In this document: in pieces, positions 2,513 through 11,954 of the stretch
Layout of the letters: each line of letters starts with the position of its first letter
How positions within the stretch are numbered: the first letter of the stretch is position 1
Origin: a virus
Taxonomy: Duplodnaviria; Caudoviricetes
Virus record (IMG/VR): IMGVR_UViG_3300010373_000052
Location: 1-58,198 of that record
DNA: 58,198 bases
Direction: 5' to 3' (one strand)
Program-made: the position numbers and the translations under genes
The notes under the pieces: model-generated
The model's input: only the letters and a program-made list of their open reading frames with translations
Told to the model about the DNA's origin: nothing
Databases searched by the model: none

Positions 2513-3179
2513 AGCGTCCTCCTGGGAGTCGGTTACGCATCCAGTTCTTCCAGGCGGCGTCGAAGTCCCGGTAGGCCTTGCCGCTGGCAGCGCTGTAATC
2601 CCGGAAGGCCTGCAGTTCGATCATGGGGTTGACGTGGTTGCGGCCGGGCTGCTCTTTCCACCACCTGATGGATTCCTCGCTAGGTCTCCAATCGGCGGGC
2701 ACAACGCTCCCCCGCTTGCGGGGGGCTACGGGGGGTTTATCTGTATCTGTTTCTGCTTCTGTCTCTGGGGGCGTTACATCCTCGACAGTCGCGACCGTTA
2801 CATCACCGTTACTTCCGAGCTTCTTAGCCCTGTGACGTGCGACTCTCTCGGACGCGTCGTCAGATTCGTACTGACGAGCGCACCAGTTGGGAAGAAACCA
2901 CGAGCCCAAATCCGTGTCGCGTTCCATCATCCCGAGGTCACACATGCGGTTGATTCCCTTACTCACGTCGGCCGACTTCATCCCGGCGTAGTCCGCCAAG
3001 TCGGTGTCCGTGAACGGCACCCTCTCCGAGACGAGCAGCCAGCCGGGGCGACAGGACTCCCTGGACGCCGACAGGATGGCCACCCACAGCCACCGTTCGC
3101 TTGGCGTGAGACGCCGCATCTTGGGGTCTCGCATGGCCTCGACGTAGAACCGAAACCAAGGCCGCTTTGGTGGCGCCAC
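2499..3179 (-). CDS. Phage replication initiator / replisome-organizer-like protein
   Basis: WFRFY..DPKMRRL..RWLWVAIL N-terminus, NW..RQ, SERVARHRAKK, ETEAET linker, DFDAAWKNWMRN C-terminus. Confidence 0.75.
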   Translation of the reverse strand: MAPPKRPWFRFYVEAMRDPKMRRLTPSERWLWVAILSASRESCRPGWLLVSERVPFTDTDLADYAGMKSADVSKGINRMCDLGMMERDTDLGSWFLPNWCARQYESDDASERVARHRAKKLGSNGDVTVATVEDVTPPETEAETDTDKPPVAPRKRGSVVPADWRPSEESIRWWKEQPGRNHVNPMIELQAFRDYSAASGKAYRDFDAAWKNWMRNRLPGGRFASR

Positions 3180-3428
3180 TCACGCAGCTCCCTTCTTCTG
3201 TCTGTTCCTTGCGGTGAGGAGCTTCCGGCGCGCCCCGTGGCCCAGGCCACCCCAGATGCCATCCAGGTTGAGGTCCGCCATGGCGTACTCCAAGCAGTCG
3301 TTACGCACGGTGCAGCGCGCGCAGACGGTCTTGGCGGCAACCCTCGCATTGGCGTCCCAGCGGGCGGGGACGAAGAGGTTGGGGTCGAGGCCCTTGCATT
3401 CGGCGTAGTGGAACCAGTGGGAGGTCAC
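3180..3428 (-). CDS. whiB: WhiB-family Fe-S transcription regulator
   Basis: AEC..DPNLF...AKTVCARCTVRNDCLEYA...GIWGG; four Cys plus GIWGG; GTG start 3428. Confidence 0.92.
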   Translation of the reverse strand: MTSHWFHYAECKGLDPNLFVPARWDANARVAAKTVCARCTVRNDCLEYAMADLNLDGIWGGLGHGARRKLLTARNRQKKGAA

Positions 3429-3790
3429 GTGGCCACCAAGTCTCGGCCCCTGCGCGCGTACTCGTTCCACGCCTCCCGACACGGCTCGCACAGCTCCTGG
3501 CCGCTCCTTCGATGCCGCATGGCCCCGGCCGGTGTGCCGCATCTGGCGGTCACCTGCGGGACGACGGGCTTCATGAACACGTGAACCTGGTAGTCCACGC
3601 GGCAGACGGGGCAGCGGAAGATGGCCGAGCACTCATCCGCGATGACCTTGCCCTCGGTGAGCGGCTCCATTTGGCCGTGCTCGGGGCACGTGGCGCGGAG
3701 GTAGTAGCCCGTTGGCGGGATAATGCCGGGGTCGCGTATGTACTCAACGTCGCGCTCCCAACCGGGGAGCCGGAACTGTCTGTCGCTCAT
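3425..3790 (-). CDS. Hypothetical Cys-rich phage protein
   Basis: CGTPAGAMRH..LCEPCREAW motif; coupled to whiB. Confidence 0.65.
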   Translation of the reverse strand: MSDRQFRLPGWERDVEYIRDPGIIPPTGYYLRATCPEHGQMEPLTEGKVIADECSAIFRCPVCRVDYQVHVFMKPVVPQVTARCGTPAGAMRHRRSGQELCEPCREAWNEYARRGRDLVAT

Positions 3791-5156: not shown

Positions 5157-5969
5157 TCAAAACGGCTCCTCACCGGTAGGTTGCGACGACGCGGACTCGG
5201 TGACTGCGTCCGGCAGCTTCCAGCCGCCCTCGATGGCTTCGGTAAGCCACGTGCCGGATTTCCAGTCGAGTTCCTCAGCGTTGACGCCAAACAGGTGGAG
5301 TGCGGCGAGGTTGGCGTCCACGTCCCTCCCGCGGGAGATGGCCCACAGCCGCCGCACCTTGCCCTCCGAGAGCTTCTCTAGCGACTCGTCGTAGCGGGGC
5401 TGTGGCTTTCCCTTGCTGGGTTCCTTCAGCTCCCCCGTCTCGGGATCGTGCGCCGGTTGGGGGGCACGTCGCACGGTTCCCTGGGCTCGGCGGTTCGTCG
5501 TGGAGCCGTTGCCGTTGGCTGGCAGTACGTTCGTCGCCTTGTCCTCGGAGTGCCCGGATTCCAACCCGTCCTTGGCCCACAGATCCAGCGCCACACCGAA
5601 GCGCATGGCAGCGTTGCGGAGCGCGTCTCCGATCCGCTCCTTCATCGAAGGCCCGTCGCCTACGCCGAGGCGCGTTACCCCGCAGACCGTCAGCCGAATC
5701 CACAGGTTGCCCTCGCGGTCGAGGGCGGGCAGGCCCGATGCGTCAAGGGACAGGGGCTCCCACGTCCACTCCGGGTCGACGCTCAACAGCCGGTCGGTCA
5801 CGGCAGCGTGGCCGACGAAGTCCAAGTGCGCGGCGGGTAGGCCGTGGTAGCCACTGCAGACGTCGCACTTGCCCTTGGGCGAGTCCTTTTTGTACGGCTT
5901 GGGCAAGATCCCGACGGTGCCGGGCGGGAACGGCTCCCGCAGCTTTTCGAGTCGTTGATCCTCGGCCAT
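5157..5969 (-). CDS. Sak/Rad52-like single-strand annealing protein
   Basis: LREPFP..., LDFVGHAAVTDRL..VDPEWTW, IGDALRNAAMRFGVALDLW; acidic EEPF tail; adjacent to exonuclease. Confidence 0.82.
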   Translation of the reverse strand: MAEDQRLEKLREPFPPGTVGILPKPYKKDSPKGKCDVCSGYHGLPAAHLDFVGHAAVTDRLLSVDPEWTWEPLSLDASGLPALDREGNLWIRLTVCGVTRLGVGDGPSMKERIGDALRNAAMRFGVALDLWAKDGLESGHSEDKATNVLPANGNGSTTNRRAQGTVRRAPQPAHDPETGELKEPSKGKPQPRYDESLEKLSEGKVRRLWAISRGRDVDANLAALHLFGVNAEELDWKSGTWLTEAIEGGWKLPDAVTESASSQPTGEEPF

Positions 5970-7834
5970 CACGCACCTCCCACAGACACCACGTCGGGCA
6001 CCTCGGGCAGACCCTTGCGCCACGTGACCAGATCGACCATCTTCAAGAAGACGTCGTGGTTGGCCTTGTCCAGCGGCAACTCGTAGAACGTGTAGCCCTC
6101 GTCGCCTCGCAGGTGGATGACACCCAGGCGGTCGGGTGGGGACCACGGCCCGGTGCCCACCTCTTGCACCTTCACCTTGCCGTCCTCCTCCCACGCCTCG
6201 TATTCGACGGTCTCGGTGGCGAAGGCGAGGGCGGTGAGCTGGGGCAGCCACGAATCGACGTAGATGCCTTTGCCGTCGTCCTGCTGGTTGGTGCTGTTGT
6301 GGGTCGGCACCATCTGTTCGCCACACAGATAGGTGTGGTCGGGGCTGTCAACGGCGATGCATTGGGTGGGCACCGACACGGTTGGCTCTACCGAGACGAT
6401 GAGGCGGCGACGGCCGTGCGCGGTGCCCTCAACCCGAACGGCGTCCCGCTTGTGCGCCACGTGGCGGAATGGGTTGTCTCGGTGGGGGGTGAATGCCACC
6501 CGATAGACGGTCACCTCCAGTCCGAACCCATGCTTGGTGAACGTGGACTGAGACGCATGCCAACCAAGCGAGACGACCAGTTCGTATACGTCCGCCGCAA
6601 GCTGCTTGTCGACAACGTCAAAGACGGCCTGGCGTCGTTTCTTGTTCCAGGTTCCGTCGGTATCCATGAGCCCCTGCAGCAACGCAAGGCGCTGGGATTG
6701 GCTTCCGCGCAAGTACGACCTCGGGACATGCTTATCAATGCTTGTGTCTCCGGTGGCTCCCATCTGACCGCAAGCTCGTAGATAAGGACGGAAGCCCAAC
6801 ACGTTCCACGACTCACCAGGATTCTCTGAGAGCGTGAAACCAGCATCACGGAACGCCTGCGCAACCGGAGCCTTGAGTCCGGGCAGGCTCACCCGCGTGT
6901 CACAACGGGTTCCATCGCCCAGCCATGCGCCGAGGAGGTACGGGTCTAACGGCAGGTCGGCGTCGGGCAAATCAAGCGGGGCTGGATTGACAACGCCGTA
7001 ACGACGTCGGGCACCGCGGCCCACCCTGGCGTTAATGTCGTCAGCAAGCTCGATTGTGGTCTTGACGCTGCGCGTCCCAGTAGCCATATGCGTGACCAGC
7101 CAGCGGTGGTCGTAATCACAAACCACCGATGACCCATCGTCAAACGTGACTCGGTAACAGTCCTTCTCATGGATGGCCGACTTCCCTACGACGCGAACAG
7201 GAGCGCCATCGTGACCGAAGACGCTGTCGCCGACAGCGATCGCGCCCATCGTGGTCCAACCCGCTGGGGTTGGAATCGGGGTGTCGAGAGATAGACCCTT
7301 CCAGTCGAGCAACCAGTCGTCCCCGACGATGCGGGCTCGCAGGTCGCCCGTGCCGATGTACTTGCCGGGGTAGCGCACCACCGTCTCGGTGGAGATGACC
7401 TCGGGCATGTGGTCGGCCCACCATGCCTCGATGCCGAGCACGTAGCCCAGGGCCGTCTCGGTCAGCTCGTCGGCGTTGCGGTCCTTCCACGTGCGGGCGT
7501 TGTGGTCGTGGGCGATGGTCCACTCGATGAGCGCCTGGATGTCGATGTCCTCACCTGCCGCGAACGCTTCGGGCACCTTGTGGCACAGCGTCCCCATGGC
7601 CGCCCGGCCGTTCCAGATCCCGGCGTGGTGCTTGCGGAGCTTGTCGATGGCGTCCGCAACGTCCATGTGCAGCCACTCGTCGTGGTGGAGCACGGCGTAC
7701 ATGGCCGTCTCGCGTGCCGCGCCCCACGACAGGCCGGGCTTGGACAGGATGTCGATGATCGTCGTGACGCTCGGCTCCGTGCCCCGAATCTTCGAGTACG
7801 GCCGAGCCGGGACCAGCGTCCTCTCTCTCAGCAT
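5969..7834 (-). CDS. PD-(D/E)XK (RecE/Cas4-like) exonuclease interrupted by an intein
   Basis: PSVTTI, GTLCH, YIGTGDL, LLDWK|intein|STN..QL..; ATG 7834 with RBS. Confidence 0.85.
   Translation of the reverse strand: MLRERTLVPARPYSKIRGTEPSVTTIIDILSKPGLSWGAARETAMYAVLHHDEWLHMDVADAIDKLRKHHAGIWNGRAAMGTLCHKVPEAFAAGEDIDIQALIEWTIAHDHNARTWKDRNADELTETALGYVLGIEAWWADHMPEVISTETVVRYPGKYIGTGDLRARIVGDDWLLDWKGLSLDTPIPTPAGWTTMGAIAVGDSVFGHDGAPVRVVGKSAIHEKDCYRVTFDDGSSVVCDYDHRWLVTHMATGTRSVKTTIELADDINARVGRGARRRYGVVNPAPLDLPDADLPLDPYLLGAWLGDGTRCDTRVSLPGLKAPVAQAFRDAGFTLSENPGESWNVLGFRPYLRACGQMGATGDTSIDKHVPRSYLRGSQSQRLALLQGLMDTDGTWNKKRRQAVFDVVDKQLAADVYELVVSLGWHASQSTFTKHGFGLEVTVYRVAFTPHRDNPFRHVAHKRDAVRVEGTAHGRRRLIVSVEPTVSVPTQCIAVDSPDHTYLCGEQMVPTHNSTNQQDDGKGIYVDSWLPQLTALAFATETVEYEAWEEDGKVKVQEVGTGPWSPPDRLGVIHLRGDEGYTFYELPLDKANHDVFLKMVDLVTWRKGLPEVPDVVSVGGA
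6296..7297 (-). mobile_element. 334-aa intein with LAGLIDADG homing endonuclease, class 3-type
   Basis: Begins GLSLDTPIPTP, block B CDYDHRW, LAGLIDADG motifs YLLGAWLGDG and LLQGLMDTDG, block F TQCIAV, ends VPTHN followed by Ser. Confidence 0.92.
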
Positions 7835-8032
7835 TCCCCTATCTCCCTCTCTGGTGTTGCTTCGGTCGGCAGGTCGGCCAACGTGGCACACGTGCGCACG
7901 CCGTGCGTGTGGACGTGGCCGAACCAAACCCGCTTAATCTCCTCGCCGCAGTTGGCGCAGAGCGAAACCGCCCCAGTCCCGCCTGCACGTGGCGAGGGGG
8001 AGACAGCCGTTGTGGACGGGACTGGGGCAGAA

Positions 8033-8389
8033 CTAGTCATTGTGCAGCGCGCCGTTCTCAATCTCGCTCCACGTGCGGGGCCGCACGATGAGTCGCATGG
8101 CTTCGGCGTCGGCCGGGTTGTCGTGGATGTAGCTGTGGTGCCACCAGCAGAGATGCAAGAGGTTGCTCAGGTCGTTCGTCCCCCCAGCGCTGCGGAGCGT
8201 GATGTGGTGGACGTGATGCGCCCAGTGGTCGCACGTGGGGTACTCGCACCGGCCCTCGCTGCGCTGGTGGATGAGCGGGCGCATGGCGTCGAGCTCGGCG
8301 TTGAACTCCGCGCCCCGGTTGCCCACGGCGTGTAGCGGGGTCTTCCGCTTCAGTGGGGTGTACCGCTTGAGGATGCCGCCGCGCTTCAC
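8033..8389 (-). CDS. HNH endonuclease
   Basis: RCEYPTC..HVHHITLRSAGGTNDLSNLLHLCWWHH. Confidence 0.85.
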   Translation of the reverse strand: MKRGGILKRYTPLKRKTPLHAVGNRGAEFNAELDAMRPLIHQRSEGRCEYPTCDHWAHHVHHITLRSAGGTNDLSNLLHLCWWHHSYIHDNPADAEAMRLIVRPRTWSEIENGALHND

Positions 8390-8697
8390 GACGTGACCCC
8401 CCACGCGTCGGCCAACGTGTCGTGCTGGGCGTAGGCGCTCTCGATCGAATCGGTTTCGGCGAACCAGCCGCACTCGAAGCACGTCGCGCGGTACTTGTCG
8501 TCCGGCGCGGGGTCAATCGTCAGTTCGTGGTCACTCACTGAGCCTCCCCTTGGCTGCCATTTCGCGGAGGTGGTCGTAGATCTGGTAACGGCGCTCGCCG
8601 CGGTGCCAGTGGCGGAACTTCCATCCGCAACTGCACTCCGCCAACCGCTCGTCTTTTTGCGGGTCCCCGTCCTGAATGCGGTGGTACTCGACGGCGC

Positions 8698-9066
8698 TCA
8701 CGGCAGGTCCCCACTCGCGATGGCGGCGAACATGCGGTCAGGCAGTGGGTCGTCCCACCACACGTCGACGAACTCGACGCCGCTACCGGGATCAGAAACC
8801 CCGGTGTCTCGACCGGCGTGGTAACGGTTGACCCGCACCTCCTCGTCGCCGACGATGAAGCGGACGCGGACGGAGCGAATGAGCTGGGCCGCTTGGTCCA
8901 GCCTGTACTCGTGAGCTGCTCGGCGGTCGTCCCACTCGAACCGGTCGTGTAGTGCGTGGTCGGGGTCGGTAGCTTCCTCTACCAAGTCGACCGGGCGCAG
9001 TTCGCCCCGACGCTTGTAGAGCTCCTCCAGCACCGCCTCTACAACGGACGTGGCGTCAGTCGTCAT
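8698..9066 (-). CDS. Phage protein coupled to the Cas7-like gene (putative accessory of the repeat system)
   Basis: ATGA overlap with 9063..9539; LHDRFEWDDRRAAHEYRLDQAAQLIRSVRV motif. Confidence 0.75.
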   Translation of the reverse strand: MTTDATSVVEAVLEELYKRRGELRPVDLVEEATDPDHALHDRFEWDDRRAAHEYRLDQAAQLIRSVRVRFIVGDEEVRVNRYHAGRDTGVSDPGSGVEFVDVWWDDPLPDRMFAAIASGDLP

Positions 9067-9539
9067 CCCGCCACCTCGACAATCTCCAACTCGTCGTTCA
9101 CTTGGAAGGTGCCGAACGTTCCACCCTTCTCCGGGCGCCACTCGCCGACGCCATCGCCCGTGCCTCCGGCATCGACCAACGCCAACACTGAGGACTTGTC
9201 GTAGAAACGGGCACCGCCCACTACGGCCGACTTGAACGCCGCCGCAGGGAATCCCACACTGCCGTCGGCCATGCGGTAGATGGACTCTTGAAAGTCGCCT
9301 TCTGGATCGCGGATCGTCTTCTGCTTCTTCCGACCCTGCTGGGCGTCCAGCATGATCTGTTTCGCCTTGGCGCTCCAAGCGTGAACGATTAACGGCGCCG
9401 TGCCAATCACTGGGACCAGCACGGTCCGTCGCTCGATGCGTTGGATCGAGATCGCAGCCGATCCAGTTTCAGCCGGTGTCGCGACCTTGGTCCCCTTCGG
9501 AACCTTCCCGTTCGTCTTGACCTCAGTTGCCGTAGTCAC
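9063..9539 (-). CDS. Cas7/RAMP-like RNA-binding protein (158 aa, possibly internally deleted)
   Basis: GAGGGAGGAG RBS, GTG 9539; VPVIGTAPLIVH (RAMP beta1), GFPAAAFKSA (RAMP IP-x-S-x-KG-like), Gly-rich loop GDGVGEWRPEKGGTFGTFQV. Confidence 0.75.
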   Translation of the reverse strand: MTTATEVKTNGKVPKGTKVATPAETGSAAISIQRIERRTVLVPVIGTAPLIVHAWSAKAKQIMLDAQQGRKKQKTIRDPEGDFQESIYRMADGSVGFPAAAFKSAVVGGARFYDKSSVLALVDAGGTGDGVGEWRPEKGGTFGTFQVNDELEIVEVAG

Positions 9540-9572
9540 CTCGAAAACTCCTCCCTCTTGGTTGTTGGCTGT

Positions 9573-9839
9573 AGGCCATGCCCGGCCCTGCCCAGCGGAG
9601 CCCTGACAGGCCCAGCCACGCATAGGCCATGCCAGCCGCGCCCTGCCATGCCCTGCCCAGCGAGGCCTAGCCGTGCCATGCCTGCCGTGCCGTGCCACGC
9701 CATGCCCAGAGCCGCCGGGCCATGCCACGCCGGCCTAGCCACGCCTGGCCGAGCCCCGCCTTGCCGAGCCGAGCCGGGCCAAGCCTGGCAAGCCATGCCG
9801 CGCCGAGTCGCGCCCTGCCGGGCCCTGCCACGCCCCGAC
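9573..9839 (-). ncRNA. GGC-NN pentamer array (about 50 pentamers in five units): candidate guide-RNA array
   Basis: Minus strand reads GGCGT GGCAG GGCCC GGCAG GGCGC ...; constant GGC, variable NN, register broken by 4-nt units every 9-11 pentamers; fills the intergenic gap upstream of the RAMP-like gene. Confidence 0.85.
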
Positions 9840-9851
9840 TGGTAGAAAACT

Positions 9852-10194
9852 TCACGACTCAACCGCCTCGAACCGGTCGCACAGACAATCCAGGCACGCC
9901 TCCCAGGCCCACGTCTCCACGTGCGCCTCGCTCGAATGTCCGCAGACACATGAGCCACCAGCCGACGGGGACTGCACGTCCAGCCGACGCACCGTGGGTT
10001 CACTCACCACGACTGGCGTCCTTCCATGAGCAGCGCGCTCAGTGCCGCGCGGCGCAGGTTGTCCTTCGTCGTCTCGTCCACGTCGGGGAAGGCTGCGAGG
10101 TGGCGGTCGTAGTGCTGCTCGTGCCACGGCAACGAGTACGGCAGCGGGTAGCCCTCGGTGGGCAGGCACGGCATCCCGCAGGGGCACGTGTAGC

Positions 10195-10198
<4 letters not shown>
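9852..10198 (-). CDS. Two small Cys/His-rich hypothetical proteins (about 9852-10007 and 10004-10198)
   Basis: GTGA-coupled short ORFs with CVCGH..H..CLDCLC and CPCG..H motifs. Confidence 0.5.
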
Positions 10199-10847
<649 letters not shown>

Positions 10848-10851
<4 letters not shown>

Positions 10852-11027
10852 AGCCAGCCCCTGACACTCCAGCGCCGAATGGTCTCGGCTGAGATGTCCT
10901 CGCCGTAGGTGGCCGTGAGGTGACGGGCCACGTCGTGCCATGACCGGCCGTGGTCCCGCCACCAGCCGACATCGTTGGCCAGGTCCCCACGGGTGAGCGA
11001 GTGCCACAGGGCGAAGGTGGTTTTCAT
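10848..11027 (-). CDS. 59-aa putative HTH protein
   Basis: Own translation: ...GRSWHDVARHLTATYGEDISAETIRRW; coupled at both ends. Confidence 0.6.
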
Positions 11028-11212
11028 GAGGGCTCTCCGTGGATGTGCTTTTCGAGTCGGATGACAGACACGCGCCAGCGGCGACCGAGTCGGAAGGCGC
11101 CCGGCAGTTCGCCACGCGCCGCGAGCTCGTACGCCGTCTTGCTCGCGATTCCCAGCCGACGTGCGGCCTGGGGAATGGTTATGAGGTCGGGGGGGAGCTG
11201 GGCGAGGGTCAC
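11024..11212 (-). CDS. xis: Excisionase-like HTH_17 protein
   Basis: LITIPQAARRLGIASKTAYELAARGELPGAFRLGRRWRV; directly after cro. Confidence 0.8.
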   Translation of the reverse strand: MTLAQLPPDLITIPQAARRLGIASKTAYELAARGELPGAFRLGRRWRVSVIRLEKHIHGEPS

Positions 11213-11591: not shown

Positions 11592-11954
11592 GTGGGATTT
11601 GGAGCAGCAATCAGGGGAAGTAGGAAGGCCGCCGGATTAACTCAGACCGAGCTGAAGGATCGCCTTCGAGAGCGGGACCCCAAGACGACCATCGACCAGT
11701 CGGTGATTTCGCGTTGGGAGAACGAATCCCCAGGGCGGGCACCCGATCTAGACGACCTTGCGGCACTCGAGGACGCTCTGGATCTGCCGAGAGGCGGCCT
11801 GCTGGTGCGCTCTGGGTTTGTGGCTGAGGTTGTATCCGTCGAGCTCGCAGTCATGACCGACCAGCGGCTAGACGATCAGGGGCGCCAACTTCTCATTAAC
11901 GCCTATCGGGGCCTTGTTCAGCCGAAGCCGGGTCGCCGACGGGGAGCCCGATGA
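11592..11954 (+). CDS. cI: CI-like XRE immunity repressor
   Basis: GLTQTEL...IDQSVISRWENE..PDLDDLAALEDALDL; position between cro and integrase. Confidence 0.85.
   Translation: MGFGAAIRGSRKAAGLTQTELKDRLRERDPKTTIDQSVISRWENESPGRAPDLDDLAALEDALDLPRGGLLVRSGFVAEVVSVELAVMTDQRLDDQGRQLLINAYRGLVQPKPGRRRGAR

Follow-up and report, generated by a model that had tools for sequence, protein, structure and literature searches.

A staggered VIPR-type guide array beside an internally deleted vipr gene in a temperate soil phage

Organization of the locus

The locus described here lies in IMG/VR virus record IMGVR_UViG_3300010373_000052, from a soil metagenome, the full 58,198 nucleotides (nt) of which were analysed (hereafter the window). 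On the minus strand it consists of an array of GGC-NN pentamers, a gene for a Cas7-like protein homologous to the Vipr proteins of VIPR (Viral Interference Programmable Repeat) systems, and a small vap-like partner gene. The array is regular and staggered, the vipr gene has an in-frame internal deletion, and the partner gene is truncated. The closest relative, L086, is a 1583-nt contig with the same order (array, vipr, partner) and a Vipr protein that is ~60-74% identical. The features of the locus, with ribosome-binding site abbreviated as RBS, are:

9573..9836, minus strand: staggered VIPR guide-RNA (vrRNA) array, 49 GGC-NN pentamers in five guide-sized units
9786..9834, minus strand: unit 1 (u1), 9 pentamers from 9834 to 9790, then GCCA
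9732..9785, minus strand: unit 2 (u2), 10 pentamers from 9785 to 9736, then GGCC
9683..9731, minus strand: unit 3 (u3), 9 pentamers from 9731 to 9687, then GGCA, the commonest junction of the family
9634..9682, minus strand: unit 4 (u4), 9 pentamers from 9682 to 9638, then GGCT, the usual junction of L086
9573..9633, minus strand: unit 5, 2 pentamers (u5a, 9633 to 9624), an extra base at 9623, and 10 pentamers (u5b, 9622 to 9573)
9540..9572, minus strand: CA-rich spacer with the RBS of vipr (GGGAGGAG, at ~9550), filling the gap between array and vipr
9063..9539, minus strand: vipr homologue, product P0001, 158 amino acids (aa), GTG start at 9539, stop at 9063, in-frame internal deletion of ~69 residues
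9189..9194, minus strand: deletion junction, codons Ser116-Ser117, FYDKS followed by SVLALVDAGG
8698..9066, minus strand: vap-like partner gene, product P0002, 122 aa, phrog_15946 (E 3.7e-19), lacking the C-terminal third

The guide array

The GGC-NN pentamers continue in phase on the minus strand from 9834 to 9573, between the stop codon (9852-9854) of a 50-codon open reading frame (ORF) and the RBS of vipr. An earlier reading of the DNA, made from its letters alone (the sequence-only reading), had counted ~50 pentamers, of which 49 can be parsed, and the four 4-nt register breaks that it listed (GCCA, GGCC, GGCA and GGCT) are all exact. Its division into five units also stands; the units are, however, of 9 to 12 rather than 9 to 11 pentamers, the fifth having 12, and a +1 shift within that unit, at 9623, was not mentioned. 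Within the detected tracts, 44 of the 49 pentamers open with GGY, a fraction (0.90) close to the median of 0.875 for the arrays beside related vipr genes (141 loci). The degenerate pentamers of the array are GACTC, CTCTG, CGCTG (twice), GTCAG and TGCGT. The 267 nt of the array region contain 47 GGY and 35 pairs of GGY at +5 spacing, compared with 3.5 such pairs on average and at most 10 in 2000 dinucleotide-preserving shuffles, and no second pentamer region above threshold is present on either strand of the window. As an example of the variable positions, the NN series of u1 is GT AG CC AG GC TC GC AT TT.

All four junction 4-mers are known from relatives, where the counts among 471 junctions are GGCA 377, GGCT 27, GGCC 3 and GCCA 2; the junctions of L086 are mostly GGCT. 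The guide ends defined at this locus are the four 4-nt junctions, of the type in which neighbouring guides overlap by 1 nt; no 3′-tail was found. A structured tail after the array was not recognized in 9540..9572, a spacer with a CA-rich and ACAACCAA-rich counterpart in L086, and Rfam matches nothing below E 0.98. No sigma-70-type promoter was found at the locus and terminator-like sites occur at the level of shuffles. The array is as regular as those beside intact vipr genes, which argues that the deletion in the neighbouring gene is recent or that the guides are still under selection.

The Vipr family and its linkage to arrays

Relatives of P0001 were sought by a word-indexed protein search and in viral_contigs, genome_contigs, metagenome loci and representatives at 50% identity. 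At E <= 1e-3, 1286 of the 1450 candidates from the word-indexed search are relatives, and there are 1931 representatives of the family at 50% identity. Viral contigs yielded at least 571 relatives among 597 candidate stretches, and the genome_contigs scan, the patterns of which were too narrow, one among 87. None closer than ~65-70% identity was found in the protein and locus searches. A profile of 12 members, P0001 included, matches the PDB chain 36pp_D, 'SUSP1 Vipr protein', with E 8.3e-8 over profile positions 138-207, a region that includes GVG(E/D)WRP.

The AlphaFold2 (AF2) model of a 223-aa relative, P0003, built with 49 sequences, has a pLDDT (predicted local distance difference test score) of 88.2 and a pTM (predicted template modelling score) of 0.80. 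Its best Foldseek matches in the PDB, in a library older than the VIPR structures, are chains of type III-A Csm complexes, Cas7-11 and type VII complexes; these chains have 193-235 residues and match from E 1e-6 with probability 1.00 and a template modelling score of ~0.5, and 110 matches have E <= 0.001. From chain length and entries, the matched Csm chains are presumably the Cas7 (Csm3) backbone. The RAMP/Cas7 fold proposed in the sequence-only reading is thus seen in the model of a full-length relative, but from the copy in the window the predicted thumb and a large part of the β-sheet are missing.

In 77 of the 80 viral-contig loci around relatives, as that reading had anticipated for homologues of the gene, the vipr strand carries GGY tracts with five or more units, and the three loci without them (L011, L076 and L077) end 4, 485 and 11 nt after vipr. 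A small tract on the opposite strand occurs in 6 of the 80. In 60 loci the arrays are confined to the downstream side of vipr and in 6 to the upstream side; 11 loci have arrays on both. In a further 81 mostly short metagenome and genome loci, 61 have a same-strand and 2 an opposite-strand tract. A homologue of the partner (P0002, phrog_15946) is encoded in 74 of 83 loci, mostly directly after vipr. The relatives keep the 5-nt phase expected of a guide array: among 669 tracts there are 305 neighbouring pairs with a 1-nt overlap, the last pentamer being GGCAG in 285 of these, and the modal unit has 10-11 pentamers. Across 141 loci, the GGY positions are the only ones conserved, and the arrays range from 1 to 47 tracts. 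The largest are those of L021 (an IMG/VR contig of 114 kb), with 47 tracts and 326 GGY pentamers over ~2.9 kb downstream of vipr, L071 with 33 tracts and L047 with 29.

The internal deletion in vipr

The window vipr gene matches phrog_4652 (E 2.5e-20), and GTAPLIVH, FPAAAFKS and the glycine-rich GGTGDGVGEWRP, the motifs by which the sequence-only reading had recognized it, are all present in P0001. Relatives of P0001 have ~200-225 aa, and in alignments P0001 is without the segment between FYDKS and SVLALVDAGG. One family profile matches in two pieces (E 1e-45 and 5e-19), positions 4-95 and 167-206 of 208, so that 96-166 are missing, and another at positions 4-103 and 174-216 of 217. Relative to L086, the gap comprises residues 113-181, 69 residues in all.

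In terms of the P0003 model, the deleted segment contains a helix (115-121) and four strands (132-137, 142-150, 153-162 and 165-173), and the hairpin at 142-162, lost from the window copy, is likely to be the thumb. Measured against a minimal RAMP fold of single RRM core, Gly-rich loop and thumb, P0001 retains the G-loop, but its predicted thumb hairpin is gone, and so are a helix and two further strands. The family-invariant residues R144, D146, R157, R159 and W165 are all in the deleted segment, and a profile alignment places R159 opposite R138 of SUSP1 Vipr. The G-loop (E133-W134-R135, GEWRP), the histidine of PLIVH and helix-1 are kept.

A comparable internal gap was found in none of 160 related loci, and the shortest Vipr match among the 80 listed viral-contig matches has 516 nt. 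Ten short forms from the best 150 representatives were inspected; all are end-truncated or frameshifted and none has an internal deletion like that of P0001, so that of the eleven short Vipr-like proteins inspected only P0001 has lost internal sequence. Two family members, P0143 and P0197, are fusions of ~125 N-terminal Vipr residues to the last ~40 residues of the partner (partner-profile E-values 5.8e-8 and 2.1e-12), which implies deletions that span the 3′-half of vipr and most of the partner gene. Together with the window copy, these fusions indicate that deletions in the vipr and partner genes of this clade recur; here, at least, the array stays. In L086 (377-1045), the 7-base sequence AGTCGGT is present at both borders of the segment that is missing from the window vipr, a short direct repeat over which slippage may have produced the deletion. 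Loss of canonical Vipr function in the window copy is very probable.

The partner gene

The vipr stop codon overlaps the ATG of the partner gene (ATGA, 9066-9063), in line with the coupling to a third gene proposed in the sequence-only reading. That reading needs correction in that the partner gene is truncated. P0002 covers positions 3-87 of the 143 positions of the family profile (3-90 in another run) and ends ~40 residues early. A word-indexed search with P0002 found only itself, and an Atlas search with the partner only unnamed viral clusters. Pfam searches with 25 partner members gave a single sub-threshold match, to MupG_C (E 0.004) in 1 of the 25, and a PDB profile search with the family gave nothing below E 1.3. 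One more small ORF follows the partner gene:

8531..8701, minus strand: small coupled ORF, 56 aa, no family found

This ORF was considered as the missing C-terminus of the vap-like protein, but the likeness is weak (E 0.42 and 3.4) and not significant.

Comparison with published systems

VIPR, an RNA-guided system that silences DNA, was first described in 2026 (bioRxiv 10.64898/2026.04.26.720920), and the works in which a full-text literature search finds the word vrRNA are all from that year; the VIPR preprints are cited here for those parts of their text that were available. Three components make up a VIPR system, namely Vipr, which is a minimal RAMP protein, an accessory gene (vap), and vrRNAs with 9-16 YNNGG repeats, and most of the systems are from phages or prophages. 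Double-stranded DNA is read by the NN dinucleotides, one target base being passed over at each step, and seven types are distinguished among 667 systems (10.64898/2026.04.26.720920). The GGY/NN layout that the sequence-only reading had likened to VIPR is the published one. Its broader proposal, that this is an RNA-guided system of VIPR type with a Cas7-like protein and not a CRISPR system, is supported by the profile match to PDB 36pp, by the Foldseek results and by the published layout, and membership of the window locus in VIPR is close to certain.

The nearest published counterpart appears in the legend to fig. S18, which refers to 'staggered vrRNA arrays ... 1 nt overlapping' (10.64898/2026.04.26.720920); the available text and supplement PDF do not name the taxa or the type in which they occur. 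A 4-nt unit followed by GGC is a 1-nt overlap, and the window junctions therefore match this type. Shared with it are a minimal Cas7-like Vipr, a small accessory gene, GGY-NN guides of ~9-12 units, a 1-nt overlap between one guide and the next, and a location in phages or prophages beside lysis-lysogeny regulators. The window differs in that its vipr is without ~69 internal residues and its accessory gene without the C-terminal third.

The type II VIPR of Escherichia phage SUSP1 (PDB 36pp) has a homologous protein and the same GGY/NN repeat code; the G-loop motif GVG(D/E)WRP and the thumb arginine of a YR motif are common to SUSP1 Vipr and the family of the window protein. SUSP1, however, has separate guide RNAs of ~100 nt, each with a conserved 3′-tail with a pseudoknot, whereas in the window no tail is seen and the guides abut with a register shift, and the sequence that can be aligned is the C-terminal third. 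In SUSP1 there is one Vipr protomer per repeat, and every GGY is bound jointly by two protomers that adjoin each other: H17 and D177 bind G1, the thumb residue R138 and W178 flank G2, and Y3 occupies a pocket of the neighbouring protomer. The substitutions R138A and D177A abolish silencing (10.64898/2026.04.26.720927). The suggestion in the sequence-only reading that each protomer holds a GGC and presents NN for pairing as a gapped code agrees with these structures, in which each GGY is shared by two protomers; the window copy, however, is thumb-less.

Hundreds of phages that have no Vipr retain orphan vrRNAs and must borrow a Vipr in trans, and 97 relatives of SUSP1 share a 1,114-bp vipr-vap1 deletion (10.64898/2026.10.15.759431). 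The window likewise keeps an array beside vipr and vap-like genes that are probably disabled by deletion, with guides that would be usable only with a Vipr supplied in trans. It differs in that remnants of both genes persist as open frames, whereas the SUSP1 relatives lost vipr-vap1 entirely. Many orphan guides are also predicted to be directed against the vipr genes or guides of rivals (10.64898/2026.10.15.759431), and no such match was found for the window array.

With the backbone of Class 1 CRISPR (clustered regularly interspaced short palindromic repeats)-Cas complexes (Cas7/Csm3), VIPR shares, as judged by Foldseek, an RRM/RAMP fold with G-loop and thumb, and protomers that polymerise on a guide at a fixed period. 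VIPR has, in contrast, no CRISPR repeats, spacers or other cas genes, a period of 5 nt with 2 of every 5 bases read, and a double-stranded DNA target with skipped bases. In line with the sequence-only reading, cas genes are absent from the 25 larger ORFs annotated with PHROG, and the sole repeat is the 5-nt array; no dedicated CRISPR finder or cas scan was run.

Guide targets

Each unit was converted to the published 1-nt-skip (xNN) pattern and exact matches were collected from viral_contigs. There are 34 for u1, none for a control with the u1 dinucleotides in reverse order, and none for u2, u3, u4 and u5b. Exact matching is stricter than the published threshold of at least 80% NN match (10.64898/2026.04.26.720920, available part), and the absence of matches therefore means little. 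All 34 u1 matches (L167-L200) lie inside ORFs (63-982 codons) of the opposite strand, in the frame of which they read [KN][IM]A[DE]ALGLT; because they share one peptide motif, the u1 code coincides with codon positions 1-2 of a common peptide. The ten annotated ORFs include those for a terminase large subunit, tape-measure proteins, a 144-aa phrog_2308 protein and a phrog_5536 protein, and the 34 contigs have G+C contents from 0.35 to 0.72. The u1 pattern agrees with the published skipping of wobble positions and points to no one natural target. The same peptide motif recurs in terminases, tape-measure proteins and small helix-turn-helix (HTH)-like proteins of unrelated phages.

No self-target was found in the phage, the best self-match being 14/18. 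When the window guides were compared with the vipr genes and arrays of 164 related loci (800 kb), near matches were as frequent as after shuffling of the NN order, with one exception. A 17/20 match of u2 in L070 was considered as a target; it is weak and not wobble-aligned, and was treated as chance.

Interpretation

These observations are best explained, with a probability of about 0.72, by a VIPR locus that has most probably lost the function of its protein half and whose guides either have been left over recently or are served by a Vipr in trans. The array would be transcribed together with the early operon in which it lies. In the intact systems of the clade, the one-base change of the 5-nt register at every 4-nt unit would divide the array into guides of ~10 pentamers. 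Vipr protomers would assemble as a polymer on such a guide, bind its GGC bases and expose its NN pairs; these pairs would then read double-stranded DNA, passing over one base at every step. The sequence-only reading assigned the role of guide binder to the window protein, having missed the in-frame deletion of ~69 residues; with the thumb and much of the β-sheet gone, the protein is probably unable to act in this way. The window guides may then be remnants of a recently lost system, or may be used with the Vipr of a co-resident or co-infecting phage, as is the case for the orphan guides of phages like SUSP1. An array without an intact vipr fits the reported guide-only lifestyle, and the gene beside it is a natural thumb-deletion allele.

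Several points weigh against this explanation. The P0001 frame is open, and the G-loop, the PLIVH histidine and helix-1 are kept, so that some RNA binding could remain; a single-sequence AF2 prediction for P0001 (pLDDT 30.5) is uninformative on the deleted form. The alignment to SUSP1 Vipr comprises just the C-terminal 65 residues of the 36pp_D chain, and three of the four window junctions (GGCT, GGCC and GCCA) are minor types in the family. No second vipr was found in the record, which is ~88% complete, and a donor in trans is therefore hypothetical. The contig that confirms the deletion (see below) is from run X1, which may be the source sample of the record and so not independent of it.

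A variant in which the disabled protein and the intact array are both products of selection and not of decay, with the guides loaded on the Vipr of a rival or a resident prophage and the open, thumb-less remnant, its GGY-contacting G-loop retained, poisoning the filaments on that rival's own guides (a natural anti-VIPR that arose from Vipr), is unlikely.

It is very unlikely that the locus is a working VIPR with a naturally minimal, thumb-less Vipr that still polymerises on the GGC-NN RNA. The gene is in frame and translationally coupled to its partner, its N-terminal half and G-loop are well conserved and the array has the regularity of those beside intact genes; but four β-strands of the P0003 model and five family-invariant residues are deleted, with them the equivalent of the essential R138 of SUSP1, the partner gene is truncated as well, and no second such short form was found in the 160 loci or in the ten short proteins inspected from the best 150 representatives.

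A truncated Vipr that serves as an anti-VIPR by binding GGY repeats or protomers and poisoning the filaments of rivals, with the array as decoy or as guides that hijack, would account for the maintained quality of the array and for an in-frame deletion that spares the G-loop residues which, in SUSP1, contact G1, G2 and Y3. VIPR conflict between phages and satellites, with guides borrowed in trans, is documented elsewhere (10.64898/2026.10.15.759431, available part). This is, however, a single occurrence with no clade of such forms found, no guide matches the vipr genes or arrays of the 164 related loci beyond chance, and with half of the fold gone a stable protein is doubtful; we regard this role as very unlikely.

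That the deletion is an artefact of assembly or of a mixed population, the real phage having a full-length vipr, is most unlikely. The record is from a soil metagenome, and the AGTCGGT at both segment borders in L086 is a repeat over which assemblers and polymerases can slip. A Logan contig of 9686 nt (depth 32.6, run X1) nevertheless spans 8300-10100, junction included, with 0 differences, and no alternative contig or joint at the deletion is reported among Logan contigs. As this is the product of a second assembler, the deletion is no artefact of a single one, although the contig is probably from the same reads and contigs drop rare variants. Run X2 covers 9310-9508 only of the locus, and there is no RNA dataset among the runs listed as containing it.

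Lastly, that the tract is coding or structural repeat DNA is extremely unlikely: open frames do cross it (a 221-codon ORF at 9063-9728 and a 155-codon ORF at 9536-10003) and its RNA folds slightly better than shuffles (z -2.25), but the period is 5 and not 3, the GGY positions alone are conserved over 141 loci in which the place and size of the array vary, and the vipr start and RBS are downstream of the tract and followed by an N-terminus that matches that of L086.

Cultured relatives

VIPR, staggered arrays and orphan guides are all described in 2026 preprints, and the locus therefore does not represent a new family; its kind having been published already, it adds an example and not a principle. 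What is new here is the thumb-deleting in-frame deletion in vipr, the truncated partner beside a well-kept staggered array, and the size and accessibility of the clade. This is a large clade with staggered arrays and a conserved partner gene of uncharacterised fold, and among its members are easily handled cultured phages of Mycobacterium smegmatis (Brocalys and Gorge) and of Gordonia terrae (UmaThurman and Ecliptus), so that staggered arrays would be open to study in a model host. Intact relatives are present in cultured Mycobacterium and Gordonia phages, with the order array-vipr-partner in Brocalys and vipr-array-partner in Ecliptus and UmaThurman.

In the cultured phages of the clade, the arrays are unannotated or have been called as ORFs. 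In the Gordonia phage UmaThurman (NC_031249.1), the array occupies L002:3135-3445, and gp40, annotated as 'hypothetical protein' (locus positions 3143-3466) and wholly on it, probably represents guide-array sequence mistaken for an ORF. Among array-like matches H33-H36, that in Mycobacterium phage Florinda is under a 'hypothetical protein' and that in Quico under no feature.

Genome context and host

The record has tape measure, portal and terminase genes, with structural genes at 34-54 kb, and the phage is a temperate siphovirus from soil. The VIPR locus is in a leftward early operon, beside the immunity switch and integrase; nearby are genes for a Cro-like HTH protein, an excisionase-like protein and the integrase, and a divergently transcribed gene (11592-11954), without a PHROG match, that is a repressor candidate. 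Downstream of the locus are genes for an HNH endonuclease, a probable exonuclease, a WhiB-like regulator and a replication initiator. The WhiB-like gene, together with the relatives in Mycobacterium and Gordonia phages, suggests an actinobacterial host, although one close protein relative is from a metagenome-assembled genome labelled Candidatus Dormibacteria.

Two of the neighbouring genes have unusual products. Directly upstream of the VIPR operon genes, a 306-aa ORF without a family (10195-11115, minus strand) contains, especially at 10240-10330, ANARYAA heptads in tandem and 13 consecutive alanines, the codons of which form (GCC)n. The 652-aa product of 5969-7927 (minus strand) matches an exonuclease family over residues 50-210, and terminase, primase and helicase-loader families alike over residues 210-546, as would be expected for an intein that carries a homing endonuclease; the sequence contains LGAWLGDG and the insert ends in THNS.

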